Source: an uncultured Candidatus Saccharibacteria bacterium
GTDB taxonomy: Bacteria > Patescibacteriota > Saccharimonadia > Saccharimonadales > JAGQNK01
Assembly: GCA_964636435.1 (NCBI GenBank)
Contig: CAZWRS010000003.1
Coordinates: 1,212-65,211 of the forward strand
Length of the DNA: 64,000 bases
Direction: 5' to 3'
Within the stretch, counting starts at the first letter, position 1, and every line of letters starts with the position of its first letter. Position numbers and translations under genes: made by a program. Below the pieces are notes generated by a model, which worked only from the letters and a program-made list of their open reading frames with translations, was not told the origin of the DNA and made no database searches. Shown piece by piece: positions 17,301 to 45,506 of this stretch.

Positions 17301-18240
17301 CACCCGTCAGCTGAACCATTGGACGCAGATCCGGAGGGATGACAGGTAGGACAGACAAGCACATGCTGCTTGGCTCAATGCCAGCCCGCTGCATACTTTC
17401 GAGCAGGCGCAGTCGCTTCATGAGCTTCTTCTTGCGCTGACCCTTTGCCTCCTCAGACTCGTCGGTCAGACGGGCAATGAGCTCATTTAAATCAACTTGG
17501 TCAAGCAGTTCCTTCAATGCCGCACCGCCCATACCGACAGTGATCATTTCGCGCAGCTCTGCCGGCAAGGCTCGGTAATCAGTCTCACTAATGAGGTTGA
17601 GATGCTCTAGGCTGCTGATCTGATTCTTAAGCAGTTCAAACTCTTCGGTGACTTCTTCGAGCTCTTTCGTCTGCATCTCAGCTAGCGCCTTGACGTTAGC
17701 ATCTTCGGCTTCTGCTTCCTTTTCAAATCGGGCCTTGATGGCGGTTTGAGCGGCAGCAAACTCTGCTTCTTTATCGGCTAGGTACTGGTCGCGCTTCTCT
17801 GCGTCAACTGACTTTATAACGTAGCTGGCAAAGTACGCGATTCGTTCCAAGTTCTTGACTGTCATACCAAGCAGCAGGCCGATTGCCGACGGAGTGCCAC
17901 GCAGGAACCAGATATGTGCAACTGGCGTTGCCAGTTGTATGTGGCCCATACGCTCACGACGGACGATGCTCTTGGTGACAATTTCACCATTCTTGTCTAC
18001 GGCTGCCTCGCGTGAGCGAACACCTTTGTATTTGGCATCGTGTGGGTTGATATCCTTGACCGGACCAAAGATACGCTCACAGAATAATCCATCGCGCTCA
18101 GGCTTCTGGGTTCGGTAGTTAATTGTTTCCGGTTTGGTAACTTCACCATAGCTCCAATCGAGAATGTCTGCCGGACTAGCCACAGCCAGGCGGACTGCGT
18201 CAAAGTCGGCAATATTTGTACCAGTATTGTAGCGTCTCAT
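14398..18240 (-). CDS. rpoC: DNA-directed RNA polymerase subunit beta'
   Basis: The 1280-aa ORF contains the [12 protein letters not shown] catalytic motif. The start overlaps the rpoB stop by 1 nt (TAATG). Confidence 0.99.
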
Positions 18241-21200
18241 TATTTTGCCTCCTTTTCTGTGGCTTCGTCTTTTGTATCGTCATCGGCTGCAGCAACAGCG
18301 GCGGCATCATCGTCGTCGTCATCGGTTGAGACGGCGGTTGTTGCCGGGATATCATCTTCCAGCTCCATGACGATGTAATCTTCAGCAGGTTGTCCGTCTT
18401 GAGACAGGTCAACATCTGATACTGCTGGAGCCGGCACATCTACTTCTGACTGATGCGCGGCTTCGTCTTTGATGTTCTCGGCCAAGACATCCTCAGCATC
18501 AACAACTTTCTCGCCCTGCTGGATGAGGTCGACCTTCAAACCAAGACCCTGGAGCTCCTTGACGAGCACGTTAAAGCTTTCTGGAACTTTCGGCCCGACA
18601 ATTTCGGTACCTTTGATGATTGACTCATAGGCTTTTGAACGACCATAGACATCATCAGACTTGATAGTCAGCATTTCCTGGAGGGTATTGCTGGCACCAT
18701 AAGCCTCCAGTGCCCAGACTTCCATCTCTCCAAAGCGCTGACCACCGTTTTGTGCCTTACCACCGAGCGGCTGCTGGGTGACCATGGTATATGGACCGGT
18801 CGAGCGGGCGTGGATCTTGTCCGCAATCATGTGGTTCAGCTTGATGGTGTACATCGAACCGACCGTCGTGCGCTCACTAAAGGCTTCGCCGGTGCGGCCA
18901 TCATACAGCTGCTGTTTGCCGTCCTCTGGCAGGCCAGCCTCTTTGAGCAGCTCCTGGATCTTCTCGGTCGGCACACCATTGAATGGCGGACTCGCGACTT
19001 TTATGCCGAGAGCACGTGCGGCCATTCCAAGGTGCGTCTCAAACAACTGACCAATATTCATACGACTTGGCACACCAAGCGGGTTGAGAATGATATCAAC
19101 CGGTGTACCGTCTTCCATGAACGGCATGTCCTCAACTGGCAGGATACGAGCGATAACACCTTTGTTTCCGTGACGTCCACCGAGCTTGTCACCTACGGCA
19201 ATCTTGCGCATTTGGGCAACGAAGACCTGAATCTGCATAATGACGCCAGCCTTCAGCTCGTGACCGTTAGCCCGTGAGAAAACCTTAACACCGACAACTT
19301 TACCGTGCTTACCGTTCGGCATACGCTGTGAGGTATCGCGAACTTCTTTAGCTTTTTCACCGAAGATAGCTCGCAGCAGACGCTCTTCCGAGCTCAGCTC
19401 TTGCTCGCCTTTTGGCGTAATCTTACCGACCAGAATATCACCAGGATGCACCTCAGCTCCGATACGAACAATGCCATCTTCATCGAGGTGACGGAGGGCG
19501 TCTTCAGAAACGTTCGGGATGTCGCGCGTAACGATCTCTGGACCGAGTTTGGTTTCACGGACTTCAACCATGAAGTCAACGATGTGTACGGATGTCAACG
19601 TGTCGTCCTGGACCAGCTTGCGGCTCAAGATAATCGCGTCTTCAAAGTTATAGCCACGCCACGGCATGAATGCCACGATAAGGTCTTTACCGAGCGCCAA
19701 TTCACCATCAGCAATTGACATACCTTCAATGATTGGATCGCCAGCTTTTAGCCTGTCGCCGGTATTGACGACGACTTTCTGGTTAATTGAGCTGCCTTCA
19801 TTGGAGCGAATAAAGTGCAATGGATTGTACGTGACTGGACCGTCCTTGTACTTGACAATAACTTCGTCACCGCTTGCCTTGACGACTTCACCATCAGCCT
19901 CGGCCACAACTAGCTGACCACTGTTATACGCAGCAGTAGTTTCCAGACCGGTACCAACAATCGGTGCCTGTGGCTTAACAAGTGGAACTGCTTGGCGCTG
20001 CTGGTTGCTTCCCATGAGCGAGCGGTACACGTAGTTCTTTTCGATGAAGGGAATCAGTCCAGCACTGGAGCCGATAATTTGCTTGCGAGCAGCGTCCATG
20101 TGCGTGACCTCGTTGGCGTCAACTTCTCCAGATACGAGGTTCGCACGGGCGGATACACGCTCATTGACGAAGTAGCCATCGTCGTCAACTGGCTCACCAG
20201 TGCTGGCAATTGTTGCCTGTTCTTCTTCTGATGCATCGAGGTAGACGACCTCGTCAGTGACTTTTGCCTTGACCGGCCAGGTGACCTGCTCCTTGACGGC
20301 TGCCAACTTCTTGGCATCGGTAGCAGTAATCTTGTCACCAGCTTTTACGACAACCTTGCCGTCGACCTCTAGATTAACAGCGGCGATGTGACCAGCTGCT
20401 TCTTTGGCTGACACCGCGTTGATGACTTTACGGTAGGGAGTCTCGATGAAGCCGTAATCATTAATCCGGGCGTAACTCGCGAGGTTGAGCACCAGGCCGA
20501 TGTTGGCGCCTTCCGGTGTTTCAACGGCACAGATACGGCCGTAGTGGGTGGCGTGAGCATCACGCACCTCAAAACCGGCGCGCTCACGACTCAGGCCACC
20601 AGGACCCATCGAACTCAGGCGCCGCTTGTGCGCAAGTTCGGACAGCGGGTTGATCTGATCCATGAACTGACTCAACTGTGAGCTGGCAAAGAATTCACGG
20701 ACTGCAGCGACAATTGGTCGGGCATTAATCAGCTGTGCGGGCGTAACAGTTTCGATCTCTTGCATGGACATGCGGTCTTTGGTGTTGCGCTCCATGCGCA
20801 GCAGACCGATGCGGAACTGACGCTGCACCAACTCACCGACAAGCTTCACGCGACGATTCGCCAGGCTGTCGATATCATCAGCTGGCTCCTGGGTGTTATT
20901 CAGGCGGATTAATTCAGCAATGATTGCCACGAGGTCTTCAAGGCGCATCACACGGTTCTCAATAGTGTTCGGCACATCCAGGTTCAACCGCTTATTGATC
21001 TTGTAGCGACCGACACGAGAAAAGTCGAAGCGCTTGTAGTTGTAGAACATGTTTTCCAGCAGACTGCGCGCATTGTCTACGGTAGCGAGGTCACCCGGAC
21101 GGAGACGACGGTAGACCTCAATAAGTGCATCATTGGCACCACGACTTGGGTCTTTCTCAAGTGTGGCATCGAGATACTTAAGTTTGCCCTGATCGACATG

Positions 21201-21836
21201 GGCGAACTGCTCTTTCATCTGGGCTTCAGTCATGCGCAGGGCACGCAAGAGCGTTGTAACAGGGATTTTGCGTTTGCGGTCAATCTTGACATACATAGCA
21301 CCGGAGGCAGCTGTTTCAAACTCCAGCCAGGCACCACGGCCGGGGATAACCTTGGCACCATAAAGATTCTGCGTACCATGCGCTTCTGCAGTAAAGAACA
21401 CGCCGGCTGAACGGATCAGCTGACTGACCACGACACGTTCCGCGCCATTAATCACAAATGTACCGCGGTCTGTCATCCAAGGATAGTCGCCGAGATAAAT
21501 TTCCTGCTCTTTGACCTCGCCAGTCACTTTATTAGTCAGCTCAACGGTGGCCTTAAGAGGCGCTTCATAGGATACGTTGTTCTCGCGAGCTTCATGCTCA
21601 GAAACCTTCGGATCCTCAAACCGATAGTCCTTAAACCGCAGCGACAGTTTGGTACCCGTGTAGTCATCTATCGGGCTGATTTCTGCCAATAGTTCGCCTA
21701 AACCCTCGTCAACGAACCACTGGAACGATCGGTTCTGGTGGTCGACAAGATTCGGCATGTCAATGACATCGTCAGTCTTTGTAAAGTAAGTTCGCTTCTG
21801 CAGCGCCTGCTTGGCACTCGTAGAGCCTTTTGCCAT
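18240..21836 (-). CDS. rpoB: DNA-directed RNA polymerase subunit beta with an 89-aa acidic C-terminal tail
   Basis: The 1198-aa ORF has conserved beta-subunit blocks (GRHGNKGV, LGGKAQNGGQRFGEMEVWALEAYGA). The SD GGGGAG lies upstream. Confidence 0.99.
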   Translation of the reverse strand: MAKGSTSAKQALQKRTYFTKTDDVIDMPNLVDHQNRSFQWFVDEGLGELLAEISPIDDYTGTKLSLRFKDYRFEDPKVSEHEARENNVSYEAPLKATVELTNKVTGEVKEQEIYLGDYPWMTDRGTFVINGAERVVVSQLIRSAGVFFTAEAHGTQNLYGAKVIPGRGAWLEFETAASGAMYVKIDRKRKIPVTTLLRALRMTEAQMKEQFAHVDQGKLKYLDATLEKDPSRGANDALIEVYRRLRPGDLATVDNARSLLENMFYNYKRFDFSRVGRYKINKRLNLDVPNTIENRVMRLEDLVAIIAELIRLNNTQEPADDIDSLANRRVKLVGELVQRQFRIGLLRMERNTKDRMSMQEIETVTPAQLINARPIVAAVREFFASSQLSQFMDQINPLSELAHKRRLSSMGPGGLSRERAGFEVRDAHATHYGRICAVETPEGANIGLVLNLASYARINDYGFIETPYRKVINAVSAKEAAGHIAAVNLEVDGKVVVKAGDKITATDAKKLAAVKEQVTWPVKAKVTDEVVYLDASEEEQATIASTGEPVDDDGYFVNERVSARANLVSGEVDANEVTHMDAARKQIIGSSAGLIPFIEKNYVYRSLMGSNQQRQAVPLVKPQAPIVGTGLETTAAYNSGQLVVAEADGEVVKASGDEVIVKYKDGPVTYNPLHFIRSNEGSSINQKVVVNTGDRLKAGDPIIEGMSIADGELALGKDLIVAFMPWRGYNFEDAIILSRKLVQDDTLTSVHIVDFMVEVRETKLGPEIVTRDIPNVSEDALRHLDEDGIVRIGAEVHPGDILVGKITPKGEQELSSEERLLRAIFGEKAKEVRDTSQRMPNGKHGKVVGVKVFSRANGHELKAGVIMQIQVFVAQMRKIAVGDKLGGRHGNKGVIARILPVEDMPFMEDGTPVDIILNPLGVPSRMNIGQLFETHLGMAARALGIKVASPPFNGVPTEKIQELLKEAGLPEDGKQQLYDGRTGEAFSERTTVGSMYTIKLNHMIADKIHARSTGPYTMVTQQPLGGKAQNGGQRFGEMEVWALEAYGASNTLQEMLTIKSDDVYGRSKAYESIIKGTEIVGPKVPESFNVLVKELQGLGLKVDLIQQGEKVVDAEDVLAENIKDEAAHQSEVDVPAPAVSDVDLSQDGQPAEDYIVMELEDDIPATTAVSTDDDDDDAAAVAAADDDTKDEATEKEAK

Positions 21837-22057
21837 GTAGCACTCCCCTGTTATTAGTACTTGATAATCAGCAGCAGAAAGTAAGCATCTGTGATCACCA
21901 ACTAGCTATGCCCAGATAGATAGATTGGTAATTTTGCTTATTTCTGTTTGCTTTGTTGTTTGATTAGTTTTTGCGCGCAAAGTTTCCTACGTAGAGAATT
22001 TTTGTGAGGTTGATTTACCTTATAACGTTCCCGTACGTACACTACTTCTTACTGTAC

Positions 22058-22086
22058 AGTCTACAGGCGACTACTACACATGTCAA
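22058..22086 (-). promoter_or_regulatory. Putative promoter for rpoBC with a leader of about 215 nt
   Basis: The minus strand reads TTGACA (22081-22086), a 17-nt spacer, then TAGACT (22058-22063). Pattern match only. Confidence 0.45.
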
Positions 22087-22145
22087 GCACCAGGAAAACA
22101 TGCTTGCAGCGGGATCAAGCGAATTCGCTTCGAGAATAAGCGATC

Positions 22146-22733
22146 TTATTTTGGCGGCGTGTTAATGACTTTGTCTACAATGCCGTATTCACGTGCTTCT
22201 TCTGCGGTCAGCCATTTATCACGCTCCATGTCGTCGTGGATTTTCTCAACTTTCTGGCCAGTATTGTTGGCCATGATTGATTCAAGCAGCCGCTTAACAC
22301 GCAGGCTTTCGCGCAGGTCAATCTCCTGGTCGGTGACCTTACCGCGTGTACTGGAGCTTGGCTGGTGTATCATGACGGTTGCATGCGGCAGCAGGAAGCG
22401 TTTACCTTTGGTGCCAGAGCTTAGCAGAAATGCTGCGGCACTGGCCTGCATACCGATACCAACGGTTTGCACATCAGCCTTCACATATTGCATGGTGTCA
22501 TAAACTGCCAGCGCATCGTAGACGCTCCCGCCTGGACTATTGATGTAGAGGAAAATATCCTTCTTGGAGTCTTCATTATCCAGAAATAACAACTGCGCCG
22601 TCACTAAGTTAGCAGTATGCGGGTTAACGTCCTCGCCGAGAAAGATGATTCGGTCACGGAGTAACCGTGAGTAAATATCATAGGCACGCTCTAGGCGGCC
22701 TTCTTGTTCAATGACAGTTGGAATAAGTGGCAT
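22146..22733 (-). CDS. clpP: ATP-dependent Clp protease proteolytic subunit
   Basis: [32 protein letters not shown] and MIHQP are ClpP signatures. The start was trimmed to ATG 22733 ([10 protein letters not shown]), which is preceded by GAGGGA. Confidence 0.95.
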
Positions 22734-22784
22734 AATTGCTTGTCCCTCAAATTTTAGCTTAGTAGCCATCGGTGGCTCTGTGCA

Positions 22785-22826
22785 AGCATACAAAACTAGC
22801 ACTCTATGGTCAAGAGTGCTAGTTTT
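22785..22826 (-). promoter_or_regulatory. CIRCE-like inverted repeat (HrcA-type operator) with embedded promoter upstream of clpP
   Basis: CTAGCACTC-N9-GAGTGCTAG lies at 22796-22822, against the CIRCE consensus TTAGCACTC-N9-GAGTGCTAA. The minus-strand -35 TTGACC (22808-22813) sits in the spacer, with the -10 TATGCT (22785-22790) 17 nt away. Confidence 0.7.
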
Positions 22827-23049
22827 TGTACAAGGTCAGATCTGAGATATATTCAGCTAAAATTTCCTCGGCGTATGGAATATCATCCTGTGAGGCCACA
22901 AGATGATATAGCTCACTCGTCAACGCATGAGGCAGTGCATATTTCATACCCAAATAGTCCAGATCGGTGGCCCACTGATTGAGATCATCCTGTTCGTGCA
23001 CTTGCCAGCCGTCTTGCGGCTGTCGTTCGAAATCTGATTCTATCGCCAT
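22819..23049 (-). CDS. Hypothetical small acidic protein (76 aa)
   Basis: The ORF has no SD. A tandem TATAGT TATAGT (23050-23061) lies immediately upstream of the ATG, making it a leaderless candidate. Its stop codon lies inside the CIRCE arm. No family recognised. Confidence 0.45.
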
Positions 23050-23087
23050 ACTATAACTATACCATGTTATTTGTTTAATACAACTAA

Positions 23088-23390
23088 CTAGATTGTATTC
23101 TGTCTACGCTCGCCATGGGCCATGATTCGTGACACCCCGACCCCGCCAAGTGTCAGTATAGCTAAACTACCGATGACCCCAGCACCTGACTGTATGACGC
23201 GATCTGGCCAGCCCGCGTCCATCCTCTCTGCAGCATAGAAAGCGGCAGTTGATAGGGCCGCAGCAACCCCAGCCCCGCCTGCTGCCCGATATGCCGAGCG
23301 CTTCTCTGCATCCCAAAATATAGCATCGACTGCCTGACGAGAACTCTCTAGCGTATTTTCCGCAAACAGAGGGTCAGAACAAGCGCTCAT
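23088..23390 (-). CDS. Hypothetical Ala/Gly-rich membrane protein (100 aa, about 2 TM)
   Basis: The ATG overlaps the tig stop by 1 nt (TAATG), implying translational coupling. Hydrophobic segments are GAGVAAALSTAAFYAA and GVIGSLAILTLGGVGV. Confidence 0.5.
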   Translation of the reverse strand: MSACSDPLFAENTLESSRQAVDAIFWDAEKRSAYRAAGGAGVAAALSTAAFYAAERMDAGWPDRVIQSGAGVIGSLAILTLGGVGVSRIMAHGERRQNTI

Positions 23391-24682
23391 TACTCACTGC
23401 CACTCGCGTATTCGACAAGCTTATTGACGGTTTTTTCAGTCAGCAACCTGGCAGCGATGTCGCGGCGTGTCTCCGGCTTTTCGAGCTCAACTTGCATCTG
23501 GGCGTCCTGATACTGGCCTTTTAATAGTTGCATGCGAATCTCCAACTCTTCAGGCGTAACTTCCAGACCCTCCACCTCGGCGATTTCAGCCAGCACAAGA
23601 CTAGCCTTTACTCGGTCTGTAGCTTGCGGCTTGAGAATGTCTTCACGGTATTGCTCTTCGGTTTTACCCTCCGCTTCGAGAAATTCTTGTATCGTCTGTC
23701 CTCGGTACATGACATTTTGCTGCAGGTCCGTCCAGAGGCGCGCGACCTGATCATTGATAAGGACTCCCGGAATCTCCAGCTTGCTCTTATCACTAATCTT
23801 TTTAACAAGCTCTGATTCATAATCACGCTCAGCCTGGTGCTGTTTCTCGTGTGTCAGCTGCTGCTTAATGTCGGCTTTTAGTTCGGTAAACGTCTTGACG
23901 GGTCCGGCTTTGGCTGCAAAATCATCATCCAGCTTCGGCAGCTTCATTTCCTGGACCTTGATGACCGACACGGTAAACTCAACTTTGCGATTTTGAAGCG
24001 CCGCGACTCCATAATCCTTCGGAAACGTAATCGTAAACGTTTTCTCATCCCCAGCCTTCATACCGATAACCTCAGGCTCAAAACCCGGTATGAACGTGTT
24101 GGAGCCAATTACGAGCGGATAATCCTTACCGTCGGCACCGCTAATCGGCTCCTTGGTCTTGGCATCAACGCCCTTGAAGTCTAAGTAGACCTGGTCACCA
24201 TCCTTGACGGCACGGGACACATCTTTCTTGTCAGCTAAACGCTGACGCAATGATTCGATAACTTCCTTAATCTCGGCGTCGGTCACCTTGACTGTCGGCT
24301 TAGACAGCTTAATCTTCTTATAGTCCGGAAGCTTGACTTCGCCAAGCACCTCAACCTCGGCATCGAATTCGAGCATGGTATATGGTACAAACTTTTTTAA
24401 GCTGATTTGCGGCCGATCTACGGGGCGAAGCTGCTCGTTGTTGGCAGCAGCAACATACAGCTGCTCGATAGCCTCTTCGAGAAACTGTGTTTGAAGCGCG
24501 GTCGGATCCACGTTTTTTTCCAGAATTTCAGCCGGAACCTTGCCAGCGCGAAAACCCGGTACTTTTACCCGCCCCTGAAAATGCGTGAGCACATGTGCTT
24601 TTATTGGTGCGAGCTCTTTCTCGTCCGCAATGACGGTCAATGTGAGGTTGGTAGGAGATGAATTAGTCTTTTTTACTTGCAT
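23390..24682 (-). CDS. tig: Trigger factor
   Basis: The 430-aa ORF has a GFRAGKVP ribosome-binding motif near the N-terminus, a central FKBP-like region and trigger-factor length. Confidence 0.95.
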   Translation of the reverse strand: MQVKKTNSSPTNLTLTVIADEKELAPIKAHVLTHFQGRVKVPGFRAGKVPAEILEKNVDPTALQTQFLEEAIEQLYVAAANNEQLRPVDRPQISLKKFVPYTMLEFDAEVEVLGEVKLPDYKKIKLSKPTVKVTDAEIKEVIESLRQRLADKKDVSRAVKDGDQVYLDFKGVDAKTKEPISGADGKDYPLVIGSNTFIPGFEPEVIGMKAGDEKTFTITFPKDYGVAALQNRKVEFTVSVIKVQEMKLPKLDDDFAAKAGPVKTFTELKADIKQQLTHEKQHQAERDYESELVKKISDKSKLEIPGVLINDQVARLWTDLQQNVMYRGQTIQEFLEAEGKTEEQYREDILKPQATDRVKASLVLAEIAEVEGLEVTPEELEIRMQLLKGQYQDAQMQVELEKPETRRDIAARLLTEKTVNKLVEYASGSE

Positions 24683-39795: not shown

Positions 39796-40572
39796 TTAAC
39801 GCTTGAGGCGCGACGCAAGGCTGCGCGCCGATGATGAACGCCGGGTCGCAGACGATGACCCGGCGTTCTTACTTCGGGCGGGTTGCGCAACTACGATCTC
39901 TCCAAACAACATCTTGCCAGAAGAAGTCTGATGCGTCTTGGTAATGTCTACCTTAACTGTCTTGCCGACAAACTTTGCAGCGTTCTCCACGACTATAAGC
40001 GTGCCGTCATCCAGGTAGCCGGCACCCTGCTTGGCATTACTGCCTTTTTGTATGATTTTGACAGTCCTTTGCTCCCCCGGCAGTGCGGTCGGCCGCAAGT
40101 GCTGGGCCAGCTCGTTGACATTCAGGACTTTAACGCCATCTATTTCTGCAACCTTACCGAGATTATAATCGGTGGTATATAGCGGGGCTTTGAGCTTTTG
40201 AGCGAGCGCGACGAGCTTGTTATCCACGGCGTGCACATGCGGGATCGACGTTCTATCTATCACCACCTGCACATCGTCCAGCTCTTGAAGGTCATGGACC
40301 ACATCAAGTCCATAACGTGCCCGCGATCGCTTATGGGCGTCGGCGCCGTCAGCCAGTAATTGCAATTCATGAATGATAAATTCCGGGATAACGAGCGTGC
40401 CAGGCACAAAGCCTGATCGCGCCAGCTCGATAACTCGTCCGTCAATCAACGCACAGGTATCAAGTATCACCTTCGCATTGCCCTTTCCCGGCAGAAAATT
40501 TTTACCGCGCTGCTGCGTGTAGAGCAATGCCAGGATTAACACTAGTAGAAGAAACTGCAGTACATCAATCAC
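39796..40572 (-). CDS. PIN and TRAM domain protein (YacL-like), N-terminal TM
   Basis: ILDTCALIDGR is a PIN acidic motif, and the C-terminal VKVDITKTHQTSSGKMLFGE is TRAM-like. It lies directly downstream of radA, as yacL does in Bacillus. Confidence 0.75.
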   Translation of the reverse strand: MIDVLQFLLLVLILALLYTQQRGKNFLPGKGNAKVILDTCALIDGRVIELARSGFVPGTLVIPEFIIHELQLLADGADAHKRSRARYGLDVVHDLQELDDVQVVIDRTSIPHVHAVDNKLVALAQKLKAPLYTTDYNLGKVAEIDGVKVLNVNELAQHLRPTALPGEQRTVKIIQKGSNAKQGAGYLDDGTLIVVENAAKFVGKTVKVDITKTHQTSSGKMLFGEIVVAQPARSKNAGSSSATRRSSSARSLASRLKR

Positions 40573-41919
40573 TTAATCTTTCTCCAGAAATGTATTTAAA
40601 GCGGTACGCACGTCTTTGACACCAACGTACCCGTTTGGTGTTTTGCCAGACTTTATGACTGGTCCGATAGCCGCCTCGAAACCAAGTTTTCTGGCTTCAG
40701 CAACGCGTTTATCAAGGAACGGCACGTGCCTGATTTCGCCCGAAAGCCCCAGCTCGCCAAACACAACGGCATTCGCTTTCAGCTGCAAACCCCTGGCGGC
40801 GGAGGCAATAGCCATAACGATAGCTAGATCAGCCGCTGGCTCGCTCAGCTTGATACCACCCACGATGTTTACATAAATATCCTGATCGGCCAAATTAAGC
40901 TTCGTCCGTTTTTCCAGCATCGCCACCAGCAGGTTCACCCGGTTTAAATCAATACCGCTAGCTGCCCGCTTGGGATAACCATAGCTCGTGCGATTGACGA
41001 GCGCCTGGACCTCGACGAGCAGCGGACGGGTACCCTCAAGTGTCGCCAGCACTACCGATCCATCACTTATCTGCCGCTCTGCGAGCAATGCTGCTGATGG
41101 GTTTGCAACTGGCTGCAGCCCATTGTCCACCATTTCAAATATGCCCGCCTCATTCGTAGAGCCGTAACGATTCTTAACCGCCCGCAGTACCTTAAAGCCA
41201 CCATACCGGTCGCCCTCGAGCTGTAGAACCACATCCACCACGTGCTCGAGCACCTTCGGGCCGGCGATTGAACCTTCCTTGGTGACATGCCCAACAAGAA
41301 TAATTGCCGTATCGGTTTGTTTGGCCGCAGCCGTTAACAGCTGGGTGCTGTTAGTAATTTGGCTAACGTTCCCGGCTGCTGAGGAAATAGCGGCACATGA
41401 GATGGTTTGTATGGAATCAACTACAACGAGCTTGTAGCCACCACCGGCAATTGTAGCGGCAATATCATCAGCACTTGTACTGGTGGCCAGCTGCAGATGC
41501 TTACCACTGGTACCAAGCCGTTCTGCACGGATACCTATTTGATGCGCAGATTCCTCGGCGCTTACATACAACACTGGCTGCTTGGTGCTTAACGAATGCG
41601 CCAGTTGTAAAAGAAGTGTGCTTTTCCCGATGCCCGGCTGACCAGCAATTAAATTTACGCTACCAGCAACTACGCCGCCACCAAGGACTGCGTCAATCTC
41701 TGCAATGCCAGTCGATAAGCGTTCGTGGTCCTTAGCCAGCGACGCACTAACAGATTGCGGAGCAAGCTGTTGTCCGCCGCCCTTCACGCTTGCTGACGTA
41801 ATAACCAGCTGCTCCTCGAGTGTATTCCATTCACCACAATTGAAGCATCGTCCGCTCCAAGTTGAACTCTCAGCCCCACAATTAGAGCAGACGTATTTTT
41901 TTGCTTCCTTCTTAGCCAT
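40573..41919 (-). CDS. radA: DNA repair protein RadA/Sms
   Basis: The N-terminal zinc finger is CSNCGAESSTWSGRCFNCGEW. It also has Walker A GQPGIGKST, the KNRYG motif and a Lon-like C-terminal domain. Confidence 0.96.
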   Translation of the reverse strand: MAKKEAKKYVCSNCGAESSTWSGRCFNCGEWNTLEEQLVITSASVKGGGQQLAPQSVSASLAKDHERLSTGIAEIDAVLGGGVVAGSVNLIAGQPGIGKSTLLLQLAHSLSTKQPVLYVSAEESAHQIGIRAERLGTSGKHLQLATSTSADDIAATIAGGGYKLVVVDSIQTISCAAISSAAGNVSQITNSTQLLTAAAKQTDTAIILVGHVTKEGSIAGPKVLEHVVDVVLQLEGDRYGGFKVLRAVKNRYGSTNEAGIFEMVDNGLQPVANPSAALLAERQISDGSVVLATLEGTRPLLVEVQALVNRTSYGYPKRAASGIDLNRVNLLVAMLEKRTKLNLADQDIYVNIVGGIKLSEPAADLAIVMAIASAARGLQLKANAVVFGELGLSGEIRHVPFLDKRVAEARKLGFEAAIGPVIKSGKTPNGYVGVKDVRTALNTFLEKD

Positions 41920-41939
41920 TCATTGTAAAGTGTAGCAGA

Positions 41940-42890
41940 TTACAGCGTCGGACGGCTATCGAGCGACTGATATAACTCCTGTGCCTCCAGTGCAATTTCT
42001 CGGTAGTCACTTATAAGGCTATTGTGTCGGGAAATAAGCGAGTTCAGAAGTCGAATATTATCGTTATACGCCGCGACCCGGGCATTATAAGCGCTTGCCT
42101 GTTCATTGGTCGTCACGCTACCACGTGTGCGTTGCAGCTCATCCCGCTCGATCGCCAATGTCTGTTCGAGCTGTTCAATTTCGCCTCTCAGCCCTGATAT
42201 CTGGAGCTCGAGCGATGCAGCCTGATTACGCCGCTTGGTCAGCACCGATTCGTACTTCTCCGAATACGCCACAATAGCGAGCCGATTGGTGAAGTATCTC
42301 TCGTAATAATCCTCAAGCTCAGGCGGCAAATTCCGTACCTCGGTTGCCAGTATCGAGTGTAACTCATTCGGCACCACCGAAGGGTCACGACTACGGTAAT
42401 TATCAATTGAGCGCTGAATACGCTCGTCAGTGACCTTAGCAAACGCATCACCTACCATTTGATCAACGCGCTCTCGCTCTGCCATGCTAAGCCGGTCATA
42501 CGCCGCATGCAGCAGCTCATGCGCTGCCGTCACCTGTTCGACCCCTTCAAGCCGCTCATCATCAACATCGAACAAAAAGATGCCGTAATTCGAGACATAG
42601 CACCCTAGTACAATCGTGTGTTCACCAAAACCTTTACAGTTTTGATTGAACTCCTCTCTGCCATTCAGCTGAGGGTGGTAAACGTAGAACAATCGGCGCG
42701 CAGGATTGGTCATAGTGGTATCAAAAGCTAGCTGCTCAATCCGCTGCGGCGGGTCGTAATTACGCAGGCGCACCCAATCGTAAATATCTTGTTTTCGCGT
42801 CCAAGCAAAAGCAGTAGCTGCCAGCACAACCAACAGGAAAACCAGAACTATCGCCTGGCCGGAATTTCGGCGGTGCAAGGTCTTTAGCAT
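41940..42890 (-). CDS. Hypothetical membrane-anchored protein with HExxH motif and C-terminal coiled coil
   Basis: The 316-aa ORF has the N-terminal TM AIVLVFLLVVLAATAFAW and TAAHELLHAAY (HExxH). The C-terminal roughly 100 aa is heptad-like (LELQISGLRGEIEQLEQTLAIERDELQ). No family recognised. Confidence 0.5.
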   Translation of the reverse strand: MLKTLHRRNSGQAIVLVFLLVVLAATAFAWTRKQDIYDWVRLRNYDPPQRIEQLAFDTTMTNPARRLFYVYHPQLNGREEFNQNCKGFGEHTIVLGCYVSNYGIFLFDVDDERLEGVEQVTAAHELLHAAYDRLSMAERERVDQMVGDAFAKVTDERIQRSIDNYRSRDPSVVPNELHSILATEVRNLPPELEDYYERYFTNRLAIVAYSEKYESVLTKRRNQAASLELQISGLRGEIEQLEQTLAIERDELQRTRGSVTTNEQASAYNARVAAYNDNIRLLNSLISRHNSLISDYREIALEAQELYQSLDSRPTL

Positions 42891-42916
42891 ACTGCTTTAT
42901 ATTCTACACGAAGATG

Positions 42917-45415
42917 TTAAGCAACGGGTTCCGCAATCTCAGACTCAGCATTATATACCAGCTGATTGTTCTTAGCGCTGATTCGGATAATGTGACCCTT
43001 GTGATACTTACCGTCAAGCAGCTCATGCGCGATATGATCCTCGATAGTGTCAGCTATCAGTCGGCGCATTGGACGCACGCCATTAGTAGCGTCGTACCCT
43101 TGCTCGAGCAAGAGATTCTTGGCTGCTGGTGTCAACTGCAAGTCAATTCCATGCTTCACTAAACGATTGCGCAGCTCATCGATTTGCAGATCGAGAATCT
43201 TGAGCACGTTTTTGCGTGTCAGAGCATGGAAGACAATGGTCTTATCAATACGGTTCAAGAACTCCGGACGCATCATCTTCTTGAGTTCATCGAGTACCTT
43301 ACTCTTGTTACGCTCGTGCAGTGCATCAAGGTCGTTTAGATCACCACGGTTATCGGCGTGGAAGCCAAAGTCAGCTTCTTTCTGTAGCTTATCGGCCCCA
43401 ATGTTACTGGTCATGATGATGATGGTGTTCGTGAAGTCAATCCGGCGACCCTTGGCATCGGTCAAGTAACCGTCCTCGAGCATCTGGAGGAGCATGTTGA
43501 AGACATCGGGATGAGCTTTTTCAATCTCATCGAACAGTACCAAGCTGTACGGCTGGCGTCGTATCTTGTCCGTCAACTGACCGCCTTCGTCGTACCCGAC
43601 ATAGCCAGCCGGTGCGCCGACTAGCCGCGATACGTTATGATGCTCACCAAACTCGCTCATGTCAATCTTGACCAGCGCGTCTTCACTACCGAAGAACTCA
43701 CGAGCCAGCACGCGCGCCAGCTCCGTCTTACCGACACCGGTGGGACCGAGGAAGATAAACGAACCAATCGGCCGCTTACCACTACCAATGCCGACACGGT
43801 TACGACGGACAGCCTTGGCGACAGCTTCGACCGCTTCATTTTGGCCGATAACATACTTGCGCAGCGTCTTCTCTAGATTTAGCAGATACTTGGCCTCGGA
43901 ACGAATGACTTTAGTAACCGGTACGCCTGTCATGCGGGCGACCACTTCAGCAATGTTTTCGCTCGTGACCGTCAACTGATTAGCAGACTTACCTTCAGAT
44001 TCGAGCTGTTTAAGCTCATCTTTGATTTGTGACGCACGCTGCTTGAACTTAGCGGCCTTTTCGTAATCTTCACTGTCAACAGCATCCTCAATACGAACAT
44101 TCACCAGCTTCAGTTCTTTCTGTAACTTGCGTACTTCTGGTGGCGTCTTACCTTTGTCGACGCGTAAGTGTGCGGCAGTCTCGTCTAGTAGATCAATTGC
44201 CTTGTCGGGCATAAACCGATCATTGATGTACCTTTTTGCCAAATTCACAGTTTCTTCTAGTACTTCATCGCTCACTTTTACGCCGTGGAATTCTTCGTAG
44301 TGCTTCCGTAGACCCTTCAGGATGGCGACAGTTTCAGCCGGAGTCGTCTCTGGGACTTGTATCGGCTGGAAGCGACGCTCTAGGGCGGCATCCTTCTCAA
44401 CGTGCTTGGTGTACTCGGCGGTAGTGGTCGCACCAATAACCTGTATCTTACCGCGGGCGAGCGCTGGCTTGAGTATATTTCCAGCATCCATCGCTCCTTC
44501 AGCAGCCCCAGCACCAACAATTAAATGCATCTCATCAATAAACACGATTGTCTTCGTGTCCTTCTCGAGTTCGGACATTATCTTCTTGAGTCGCTCCTCG
44601 AATTCACCGCGGTATTTGGTGCCGGCTATCATGCCAGCCAAGTCGAGCATAACAATCCGCTTGTCGAGCAGGCTATCAGGCACATCTTCGTTGACAATCC
44701 GCTGAGCCAAACCCTCAACGATAGCTGTTTTACCGACACCAGGCTCACCAATGAGCACTGGGTTGTTCTTCGTTCGACGGTTTAAGATGGTGATAACGCG
44801 CCTGATTTGTGCTTCCCGGCCAACAACTGGGTCAAGCTTGCCGTCCCGTGCCTGAGCCGTCAAATCCGTACCAAAGAAATCGAGCGCGGTTTTCTTGGTC
44901 TTTTTCACCTTCCGACGGCCATCCGTAGAAGAAGAGCTGTCATCTTCGTACTGTTGGCGATTAAGGAATTGCTCCAGTTCAGAGACTAACGCGTCAACAT
45001 CTACGTTCATATCTCGAAGCAGTATCGTTGCTCGTGCGTTCTTCTGGCTCAGCACGCTATATAGTATGTGCTCAGTACCGCAAAATTCCTGGTTGAAGTC
45101 TTGCGCTACATCGTAGGCCATCTTAAGCGTCAGCTTGGCCGTTTCACTCAAGCCTTTGGCACCCATATTTATAACTAGTGTCTTTGGTGTGAGGTTCAGC
45201 GCCAGACGGGCACGGTCCAGTGTCACACCAGCACCTTCAAGTATTTTAGAGCCCATGCTGGTGTCTTGTGCGAGCACACCAAGCAGCAAGTGCTCAGTAC
45301 CGACGTAGGCGCTACCGAAGCTCCGCGCTATAGCATCGGCGTGCTTCAAACTTTGCAGCGCGTTATCAGTAAGATGATTCAAAAATTCTTGGAAATCAGA
45401 GTTTTGTGGCATCAT
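42917..45415 (-). CDS. clpC: ATP-dependent Clp protease ATP-binding subunit ClpC
   Basis: The 832-aa ORF has a duplicated Clp_N repeat, two AAA+ modules ([16 protein letters not shown]), a short UVR-like linker ([20 protein letters not shown]) rather than a long ClpB M-domain, and an FGF loop. Confidence 0.9.
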
Positions 45416-45463: not shown

Positions 45464-45506
45464 ATGATACCAAAACTAGCACTCAAGGGTCAAGAGTGCT
45501 AGTTTT
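45464..45506 (-). promoter_or_regulatory. Second CIRCE-like inverted repeat with embedded promoter, upstream of clpC
   Basis: CTAGCACTC-aagggtcaa-GAGTGCTAG lies at 45476-45502. The minus-strand -35 TTGACC (45488-45493) sits in the spacer, followed by an 18-nt spacer and the -10 TATCAT (45464-45469). The element is 61 nt from the clpC ATG. Confidence 0.7.

Follow-up and report, generated by a model that had tools for sequence, protein, structure and literature searches.

What does an inverted repeat of the CIRCE type do in front of clpP? In the CIRCE/HrcA regulon, groESL is a constant member and the dnaK operon usually one too (PMC545781, PMC3842655). The repeat in question lies in a stretch of 64,000 nt of DNA from an uncultured Saccharibacteria bacterium (the window, meaning the whole stretch that was analysed), and an earlier note, made from the letters alone, had taken it for an HrcA operator with an embedded promoter and had placed the Clp genes of this organism in an HrcA-type heat-shock regulon. 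Hardly any members of the Patescibacteria (the candidate phyla radiation) have been cultivated; their genomes are tiny, they have few regulators, and to our knowledge almost nothing is known about their gene regulation. The site and its relatives amount to a concrete and testable regulon in this group. As argued below, the repeat is very probably a CIRCE operator for HrcA, fused to a sigma-70-type promoter from which clpP would be transcribed under HrcA repression, with a twin of the same kind in front of clpC.

The inverted repeat and its extended arms are borne out by the sequence at the positions previously given for them (Table 1). Read on the plus strand, the core is CTAGCACTC-TATGGTCAA-GAGTGCTAG, with the spacer tatggtcaa. 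It is a perfect inverted repeat that agrees with CIRCE at eight of the nine positions in each arm and keeps the exact 9-nt spacer, as had been claimed; the outermost C/G of the arms, in place of T/A, is a minor variant. The proposed TTGACC within the spacer and TATGCT 17 nt farther on are called as a sigma-70-like pair by a promoter scan, and the proximal arm of the repeat fills the spacer between these two boxes. Transcription of clpP is predicted to start near 22778. The clpP ATG at 22733 lies 62–63 nt beyond the end of the repeat, matching the distance of about 63 nt in the earlier note, and the element does overlap the stop codon of a 76-aa ORF. Gene callers use an in-frame ATG at 22769, which gives a 207-aa form of ClpP.

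Table 1. Positions of the two CIRCE sites in the window, with their promoters and adjoining genes.
Feature	Position	Strand	Basis or remark
CIRCE core inverted repeat CTAGCACTC-N9-GAGTGCTAG, predicted HrcA operator before clpP	22796..22822		0 mismatches
Extended arms AAAACTAGCACTC / GAGTGCTAGTTTT of the clpP site	22792..22826		Equal extension at the second site
-35 box TTGACC, first six bases of the 9-nt CIRCE spacer	22808..22813	-	Promoter scan
-10 box TATGCT, 17 nt past the -35	22785..22790	-	Promoter scan
Shine-Dalgarno sequence GAGGGA for the clpP ATG at 22733	22743..22748	-	Read from the sequence
clpP, 195 aa, PF00574	22146..22733	-	ORF and Pfam
76-aa ORF, TAG stop (22821-22819) inside the distal CIRCE arm	22819..23049	-	ORF list
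Second CIRCE CTAGCACTC-N9-GAGTGCTAG, arms extending to 45472-45506	45476..45502		Pattern scan
clpC promoter: TTGACC (45493-45488) in the CIRCE spacer, 18 nt, TG-n-TATCAT (-10 at 45469-45464)	45464..45493	-	Promoter scan
clpC, 832 aa, two Clp_N repeats and two AAA modules	42917..45415	-	ORF and Pfam
Genes for a 316-aa coiled-coil protein, radA and a PIN/TRAM protein, downstream of clpC	39796..42890	-	Gaps of at most 26 nt

The nearby genes are all on the minus strand (hisS, a 153-aa membrane-like ORF, tig, a 100-aa ORF, the 76-aa ORF, clpP and rpoB). Neither the 76-aa nor the 100-aa ORF, which lie between tig and clpP (22819-23390), has a Pfam match or a homologue in the related loci, and gene callers annotate both nonetheless. 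Since no homologue was found, the coding status of the 76-aa ORF is uncertain; the two may be species-specific genes or no genes at all. An Rfam search of 22000-23500 returned no family match. In 19 contigs of the same species the clpP operator and promoter are invariant, and the SNPs within the species avoid the operator, an avoidance that is not significant with only five SNPs in 560 nt.

Is the repeat at clpP the only one of its kind? When the window was scanned for YTAGCACTC-N9-GAGTGCTAR with up to three mismatches, two sites were found, both with zero mismatches, against 0.05 expected in shuffled windows. The second, which the earlier note did not contain, reads AAAACTAGCACTC-TTGACCCTT-GAGTGCTAGTTTTG-GTATCAT on the minus strand and is situated 20 nt past the nusA stop codon and 61 nt before clpC. 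It shares its arms, flanks and -35 with the clpP site. There are no other full copies of CIRCE in the 64 kb, and both of these lie at promoters of Clp genes. Judging by their spacing, the gene for the 316-aa protein, radA and the PIN/TRAM gene are probably the rest of the clpC operon. As a separate observation, tig is also found in the window (23390-24682) and has no CIRCE.

The CtsR class III regulon of Firmicutes has the same targets, clpP and clpC, and a similar string of clpC, radA and a PIN/TRAM gene; the segment at 39796-45415 resembles the ctsR-mcsA-mcsB-clpC-radA-...-yacL neighbourhood of Bacillus. However, the string in the window lacks ctsR, mcsA and mcsB ahead of clpC, where nusA lies directly upstream instead, and the operator is an inverted CIRCE repeat, not a direct heptad repeat. 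The CtsR operator RGTCAAA-NAN-RGTCAAA was tried as a candidate and rejected: it gave two matches with three mismatches in the window, where 4.9 would be expected, and neither is near clpP or clpC.

Which genes does the motif precede in other genomes? One genome per species was scanned with AACTAGCACTC-N9-GAGTGCTAGTT; this gave at least 118 loci, and the gene beside the motif was identified by blastx of both flanks against reference proteins. About 80 of the 118 listed loci are labelled Saccharibacteria, Saccharimonadales or allied names, the remaining ones being mostly other Patescibacteria or unlabelled “bacterium” bins. Of the 118 loci listed, all selected by motif, 112 have a gene for proteostasis as the immediate downstream neighbour, in each case on one side of the motif only: a clpC-type gene in 26, clpP in 23, dnaJ in 20, dnaK in 14, hrcA in 10, hsp20 in nine, groES/EL in six, tig in two, and htpG and clpB in one each. 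Where they were checked (HrcA PF01628, Hsp20, ClpP, ClpC), the Pfam assignments agree with the blastx calls. The tabulation thus supports the membership of Clp genes in an HrcA-type regulon, with dnaK, dnaJ, groES/EL and hrcA among the genes that the motif precedes. It also contradicts a scatter of the motif at 3' ends of unrelated genes, which had been named beforehand as a refutation: since the motif marks one functional class that includes the classical HrcA targets, it is no generic terminator or REP-like element. Since one canonical operator, which can be recognised by eye, marks the promoters of chaperones and of Clp proteases alike, the protein-quality-control response as a whole is probably set by a single repressor. 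In JAQBRV01 (Saccharibacteria, isolate RYN_410), hrcA-grpE-CIRCE-dnaK is found on one contig and CIRCE-clpC on another, and in other single assemblies the motif pairs clpP with clpC, clpP with dnaJ, or groES with dnaK.

Because the genome scan was selected by motif, the region upstream of clpP was also sampled by protein, in a metagenome scan with the ClpP of the window as query and a CIRCE criterion of at most three mismatches. The best 80 loci included 19 with at least 73% ClpP identity, 17 of which had enough upstream sequence, and in all 17 of these close relatives a CIRCE is located 25-165 nt upstream of clpP. Among the same best 80, none of the 61 loci from other phyla, at 66% ClpP identity or less, has one before clpP. 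This separation speaks for the HrcA reading of the earlier note. Stacking of the 17 sites gives the consensus aaTTAGCACTC-N9-GAGTGCTAAtt, with TTGAC in 16 of the spacers and TTGCC in one. The -35 starts either at spacer position 1 (TTGACnnnn) or at position 5 (nnnnTTGAC, to which the right arm adds the G that completes it), and a TATAAT-like box follows 16-18 nt past it. Conservation is confined to the arms, the -35 and the -10 and does not extend to the remaining intergenic sequence. In their sequence, the stacked sites are a clean phylogenetic footprint of a predicted operator fused to a promoter.

These results bear on the reading that the repeat is a chance palindrome, or a copy of some dispersed REP-like or mobile element, and has no regulatory meaning. 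It is a repeated palindrome, with two copies in the window, as such an element would be. However, by chance no more than 0.05 sites would be expected; the 64 kb has just two copies, both at Clp promoters; the palindrome is kept before the orthologous clpP in every one of the 17 relatives while its flanks diverge, and its distribution across genomes is specific for a class of genes. The probability left to chance or a dispersed element is close to negligible.

Another reading takes the hairpin to be mainly an intrinsic terminator or attenuator of the upstream transcript (from the 76-aa ORF or tig at one site, from nusA at the other), its likeness to CIRCE being secondary. The hairpin begins at or just past the upstream stop codon. 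In RNA it would form a 13-bp stem (-23.1 and -20.3 kcal/mol, with z about -5.5 relative to shuffled sequences), with an A-run before it and UUUUGU after it, much like bidirectional terminators. However, a terminator scan makes no call at either site, and the four U's of the run pair with upstream A's. After the right arm no T-run is conserved in the 17 protein-selected relatives, which have kept the arms, the -35 and the -10, and for this reason the terminator idea is weak. The terminator would also have no conserved upstream gene to serve, since the 76-aa and 100-aa ORFs are without homologues in the relatives, and in the 118 listed loci the motif tracks the class of the downstream gene (112 loci) instead of 3' ends in general. 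Termination is therefore an unlikely main role, and a termination or roadblock effect would be a local side effect at most. The earlier note had suggested that the hairpin might also terminate the upstream transcript; of this suggestion the stable RNA hairpin stands, whereas the terminator scan and the lack of conservation of the T-run count against it.

If the repeat is an operator for HrcA, is there an HrcA to bind it? Within the 64-kb window, ten candidate ORFs were run against Pfam, and none proved to be hrcA, groES, groEL or dnaK. Looking up the exact proteins of the 76-aa ORF, of ClpP and of trigger factor led to Logan contigs no longer than 12.7 kb. With hrcA outside the window, the regulator has to be inferred from relatives. 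In the related loci 21 hrcA genes were found, and all 21 have a CIRCE just upstream (at most three mismatches), including ten whose CIRCE falls outside the strict motif selection. At least 12 assemblies or contigs of Saccharibacteria contain the gene, and in two hrcA loci that were looked up by protein a CIRCE enclosing a -35 precedes the ATG of hrcA by about 20 nt. The earlier HrcA reading gains from this, hrcA being present in the lineage behind the same operator and, in one assembly, together with a CIRCE-clpC locus. Taken together, two sites where 0.05 were expected, the gene class of the 112 among 118 listed loci, the 17 of 17 against none of 61 at clpP and the 21 of 21 at hrcA support the HrcA-operator reading.

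The HrcA of this lineage is a small protein. A profile of nine Saccharibacteria HrcA proteins matched at least 8000 protein clusters, the best 120 of which are 232-278 aa long, mostly 235. In Saccharibacteria and other Patescibacteria the short form has about 233-250 aa (L020:3629-4330, L066:1490-2194, L116:6896-7603 and others; P0001-P0120), and Pfam identifies it as HrcA (PF01628). Characterised systems have an HrcA of about 340 aa, against about 235 aa here. In an alignment with Thermotoga maritima HrcA (1STZ), the short protein covers residues 15-139 and 246-332 and leaves out about 105 in between (about 140-245), a segment which we take to be the inserted dimerising domain of the Thermotoga protein. 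Being about 100 residues shorter than the characterised proteins, the short HrcA may differ in dimerisation and stress sensing. With regard to the sequencing runs that HrcA clusters share with the window organism, P0018 shares SRR7082982 and sibling runs and P0035 shares sibling runs only, an overlap too small for a claim that they come from the same organism.

The atypically short HrcA of the lineage, and the failure to find hrcA within the 64-kb window, could also point to some other, lineage-specific repressor that recognises a CIRCE-like palindrome. Against this, the N-terminal winged-helix region of the short HrcA aligns with that of canonical HrcA and is highly conserved, the motif is found at every hrcA gene seen, which fits autoregulation, and dnaK, dnaJ, groES/EL and hrcA-grpE are the classical HrcA regulon. 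Moreover, the exact published consensus, TTAGCACTC-N9-GAGTGCTAA (PMC545781, PMC3842655), occurs in the relatives. A repressor other than HrcA is thus very improbable.

How would HrcA act at such a site? The -35 lies in the operator spacer and the proximal half-site between the -35 and the -10, so that an HrcA dimer on the two half-sites would lie over both the -35 region and the promoter spacer and would be expected to exclude RNA polymerase. In the classical model, established for Bacillus, HrcA is inactivated by heat or when GroEL is titrated by unfolded proteins. By analogy, loss of HrcA activity under protein-folding stress would free the clpP promoter in the host, whose hrcA gene is presumably elsewhere in its genome, and clpP would then be transcribed from about 22778, with a 45-nt leader. 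The twin operator-promoter at 45476-45502 would do the same for clpC and probably also for the string clpC-orf316-radA-PIN/TRAM. More speculatively, transcription reading through from tig or nusA might in addition be impeded, either by the bound repressor or by the hairpin. Such well-defined promoters, with a candidate stress-inducible switch, might be of use in the new genetic systems for Saccharibacteria.

The predicted start sites differ in their distance from the genes. Both window genes, clpP and clpC, would have leaders of about 45 nt with a Shine-Dalgarno sequence, whereas many transcripts of relatives look leaderless. In the relatives (L016, L017, L014, L021, L127, L209 and others), dnaJ, many clpP genes and hrcA start 16-20 nt past the right arm, with the ATG 6-9 nt past the -10, a distance that suggests leaderless mRNAs. 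In some Saccharibacteria loci the operator is doubled: a tandem pair of CIRCE copies precedes dnaK in L015, L058, L082, L121 and L127, and hrcA in L066. The first copy of the pair holds the -35; the second, more degenerate one (TGGCAATC-N9-GAGTGCTA) is downstream of the -10 and would be part of the transcript. In two Saccharibacteria loci (L053, L065) the CIRCE-promoter precedes tig, and clpP follows without a site of its own, so that trigger factor can also join the regulon.

The CIRCE/HrcA system of Bacillus subtilis has in common with the window site the inverted repeat and the 9-nt spacer, and its core regulon (dnaK, dnaJ, groES/EL and hrcA-grpE, with autoregulated hrcA) is matched in the lineage. 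It differs in that the targets here are clpP and clpC and that the -35 is inside the operator spacer. In Bacillus the operator comes after the promoter or transcription start and ahead of the start codon, in the dnaK and groE leaders. In contrast to these leaders, the repeat in the window would be outside the mRNA of clpP itself, since it is upstream of the predicted start.

In Mollicutes the HrcA regulons include the dnaK operon as well as clpB and lon, with tandem CIRCE copies (PMC5138195). As in Saccharibacteria, the genomes are reduced, HrcA is among the few conserved regulators, and its targets include AAA+ chaperones and proteases; tandem CIRCE copies are common to Mollicutes and to the dnaK genes of Saccharibacteria. 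The Clp-type members are clpB and lon in the former, and clpP and clpC (plus hsp20, dnaJ and sometimes tig) in the latter. The Mollicutes belong to an unrelated phylum, however, and the layout with the -35 in the spacer is not described there (PMC5138195). For a clp gene with CIRCE in an HrcA regulon there are precedents, as far as the citing papers go, in Streptococcus salivarius clpP, with dual regulation by CtsR and HrcA (Chastanet & Msadek 2003, cited in PMC3842655), and in Lactobacillus gasseri clpL, which is under HrcA (cited in PMC3192767). These are Firmicutes with CtsR as co-regulator, whereas the window is without a CtsR box at its Clp genes. Expansion of the HrcA regulon in reduced genomes is a known phenomenon; for heat-shock specialists the present case is thus an expected variation and no surprise.

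A full-text search of open-access papers for HrcA/CIRCE in Saccharibacteria, Patescibacteria, TM7 and the candidate phyla radiation found nothing relevant. The clpP site is a CIRCE of canonical type whose targets are non-classical, in a phylum that has been studied little, and its layout, with the -35 within the spacer, is characteristic; the lineage-wide regulon and the short HrcA of about 235 aa are, as far as could be found in open-access papers, undescribed. We lean towards a broader claim, namely that in Saccharibacteria, and apparently in other Patescibacteria, a minimal HrcA of about 235 aa without the dimerising insert runs essentially the whole proteostasis network (dnaK, dnaJ, groESL, hsp20, clpP, clpC, clpB and sometimes tig) through operators with the -35 in the spacer and often leaderless-looking transcripts, replacing Clp control of the CtsR, ClgR or sigma-32 type. 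In a transcriptome of TM7x, the phase in which most chaperones are higher is not the one in which one predicted clp protease is higher (PMC10768705). That pattern is unlike what strict co-regulation would predict, and the comparison made there was not one of heat shock.

Some minor observations concern the labels of the loci and the other genes of the window. Two loci with a CIRCE-promoter are labelled Acidobacteriota (L015, before dnaK, and L069, before hsp20) and two Gammaproteobacteria (L049 and L096). Some of these contigs carry genes of Saccharibacteria or Patescibacteria type; L015, L049 and L096 have the short HrcA, that of L015 being 76% identical to one from Saccharimonadales, which suggests that the four are mis-binned or mislabelled MAG contigs. 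Within the window, a third CIRCE-like match immediately before the start codon of rpoB (21838-21862), the sole addition when the search was relaxed to three mismatches, has one perfect half-site (GAGTGCTA, on the minus strand), and it was taken to be due to chance because it shares bases with the GGGGAG ribosome-binding site and lacks conservation before rpoB in 27 related loci. RpoB itself (18240-21836, 1198 aa) has a long acidic C-terminal tail (…DDDDDDAAAVAAADDDTKDEATEKEAK) outside the usual beta-subunit domains.
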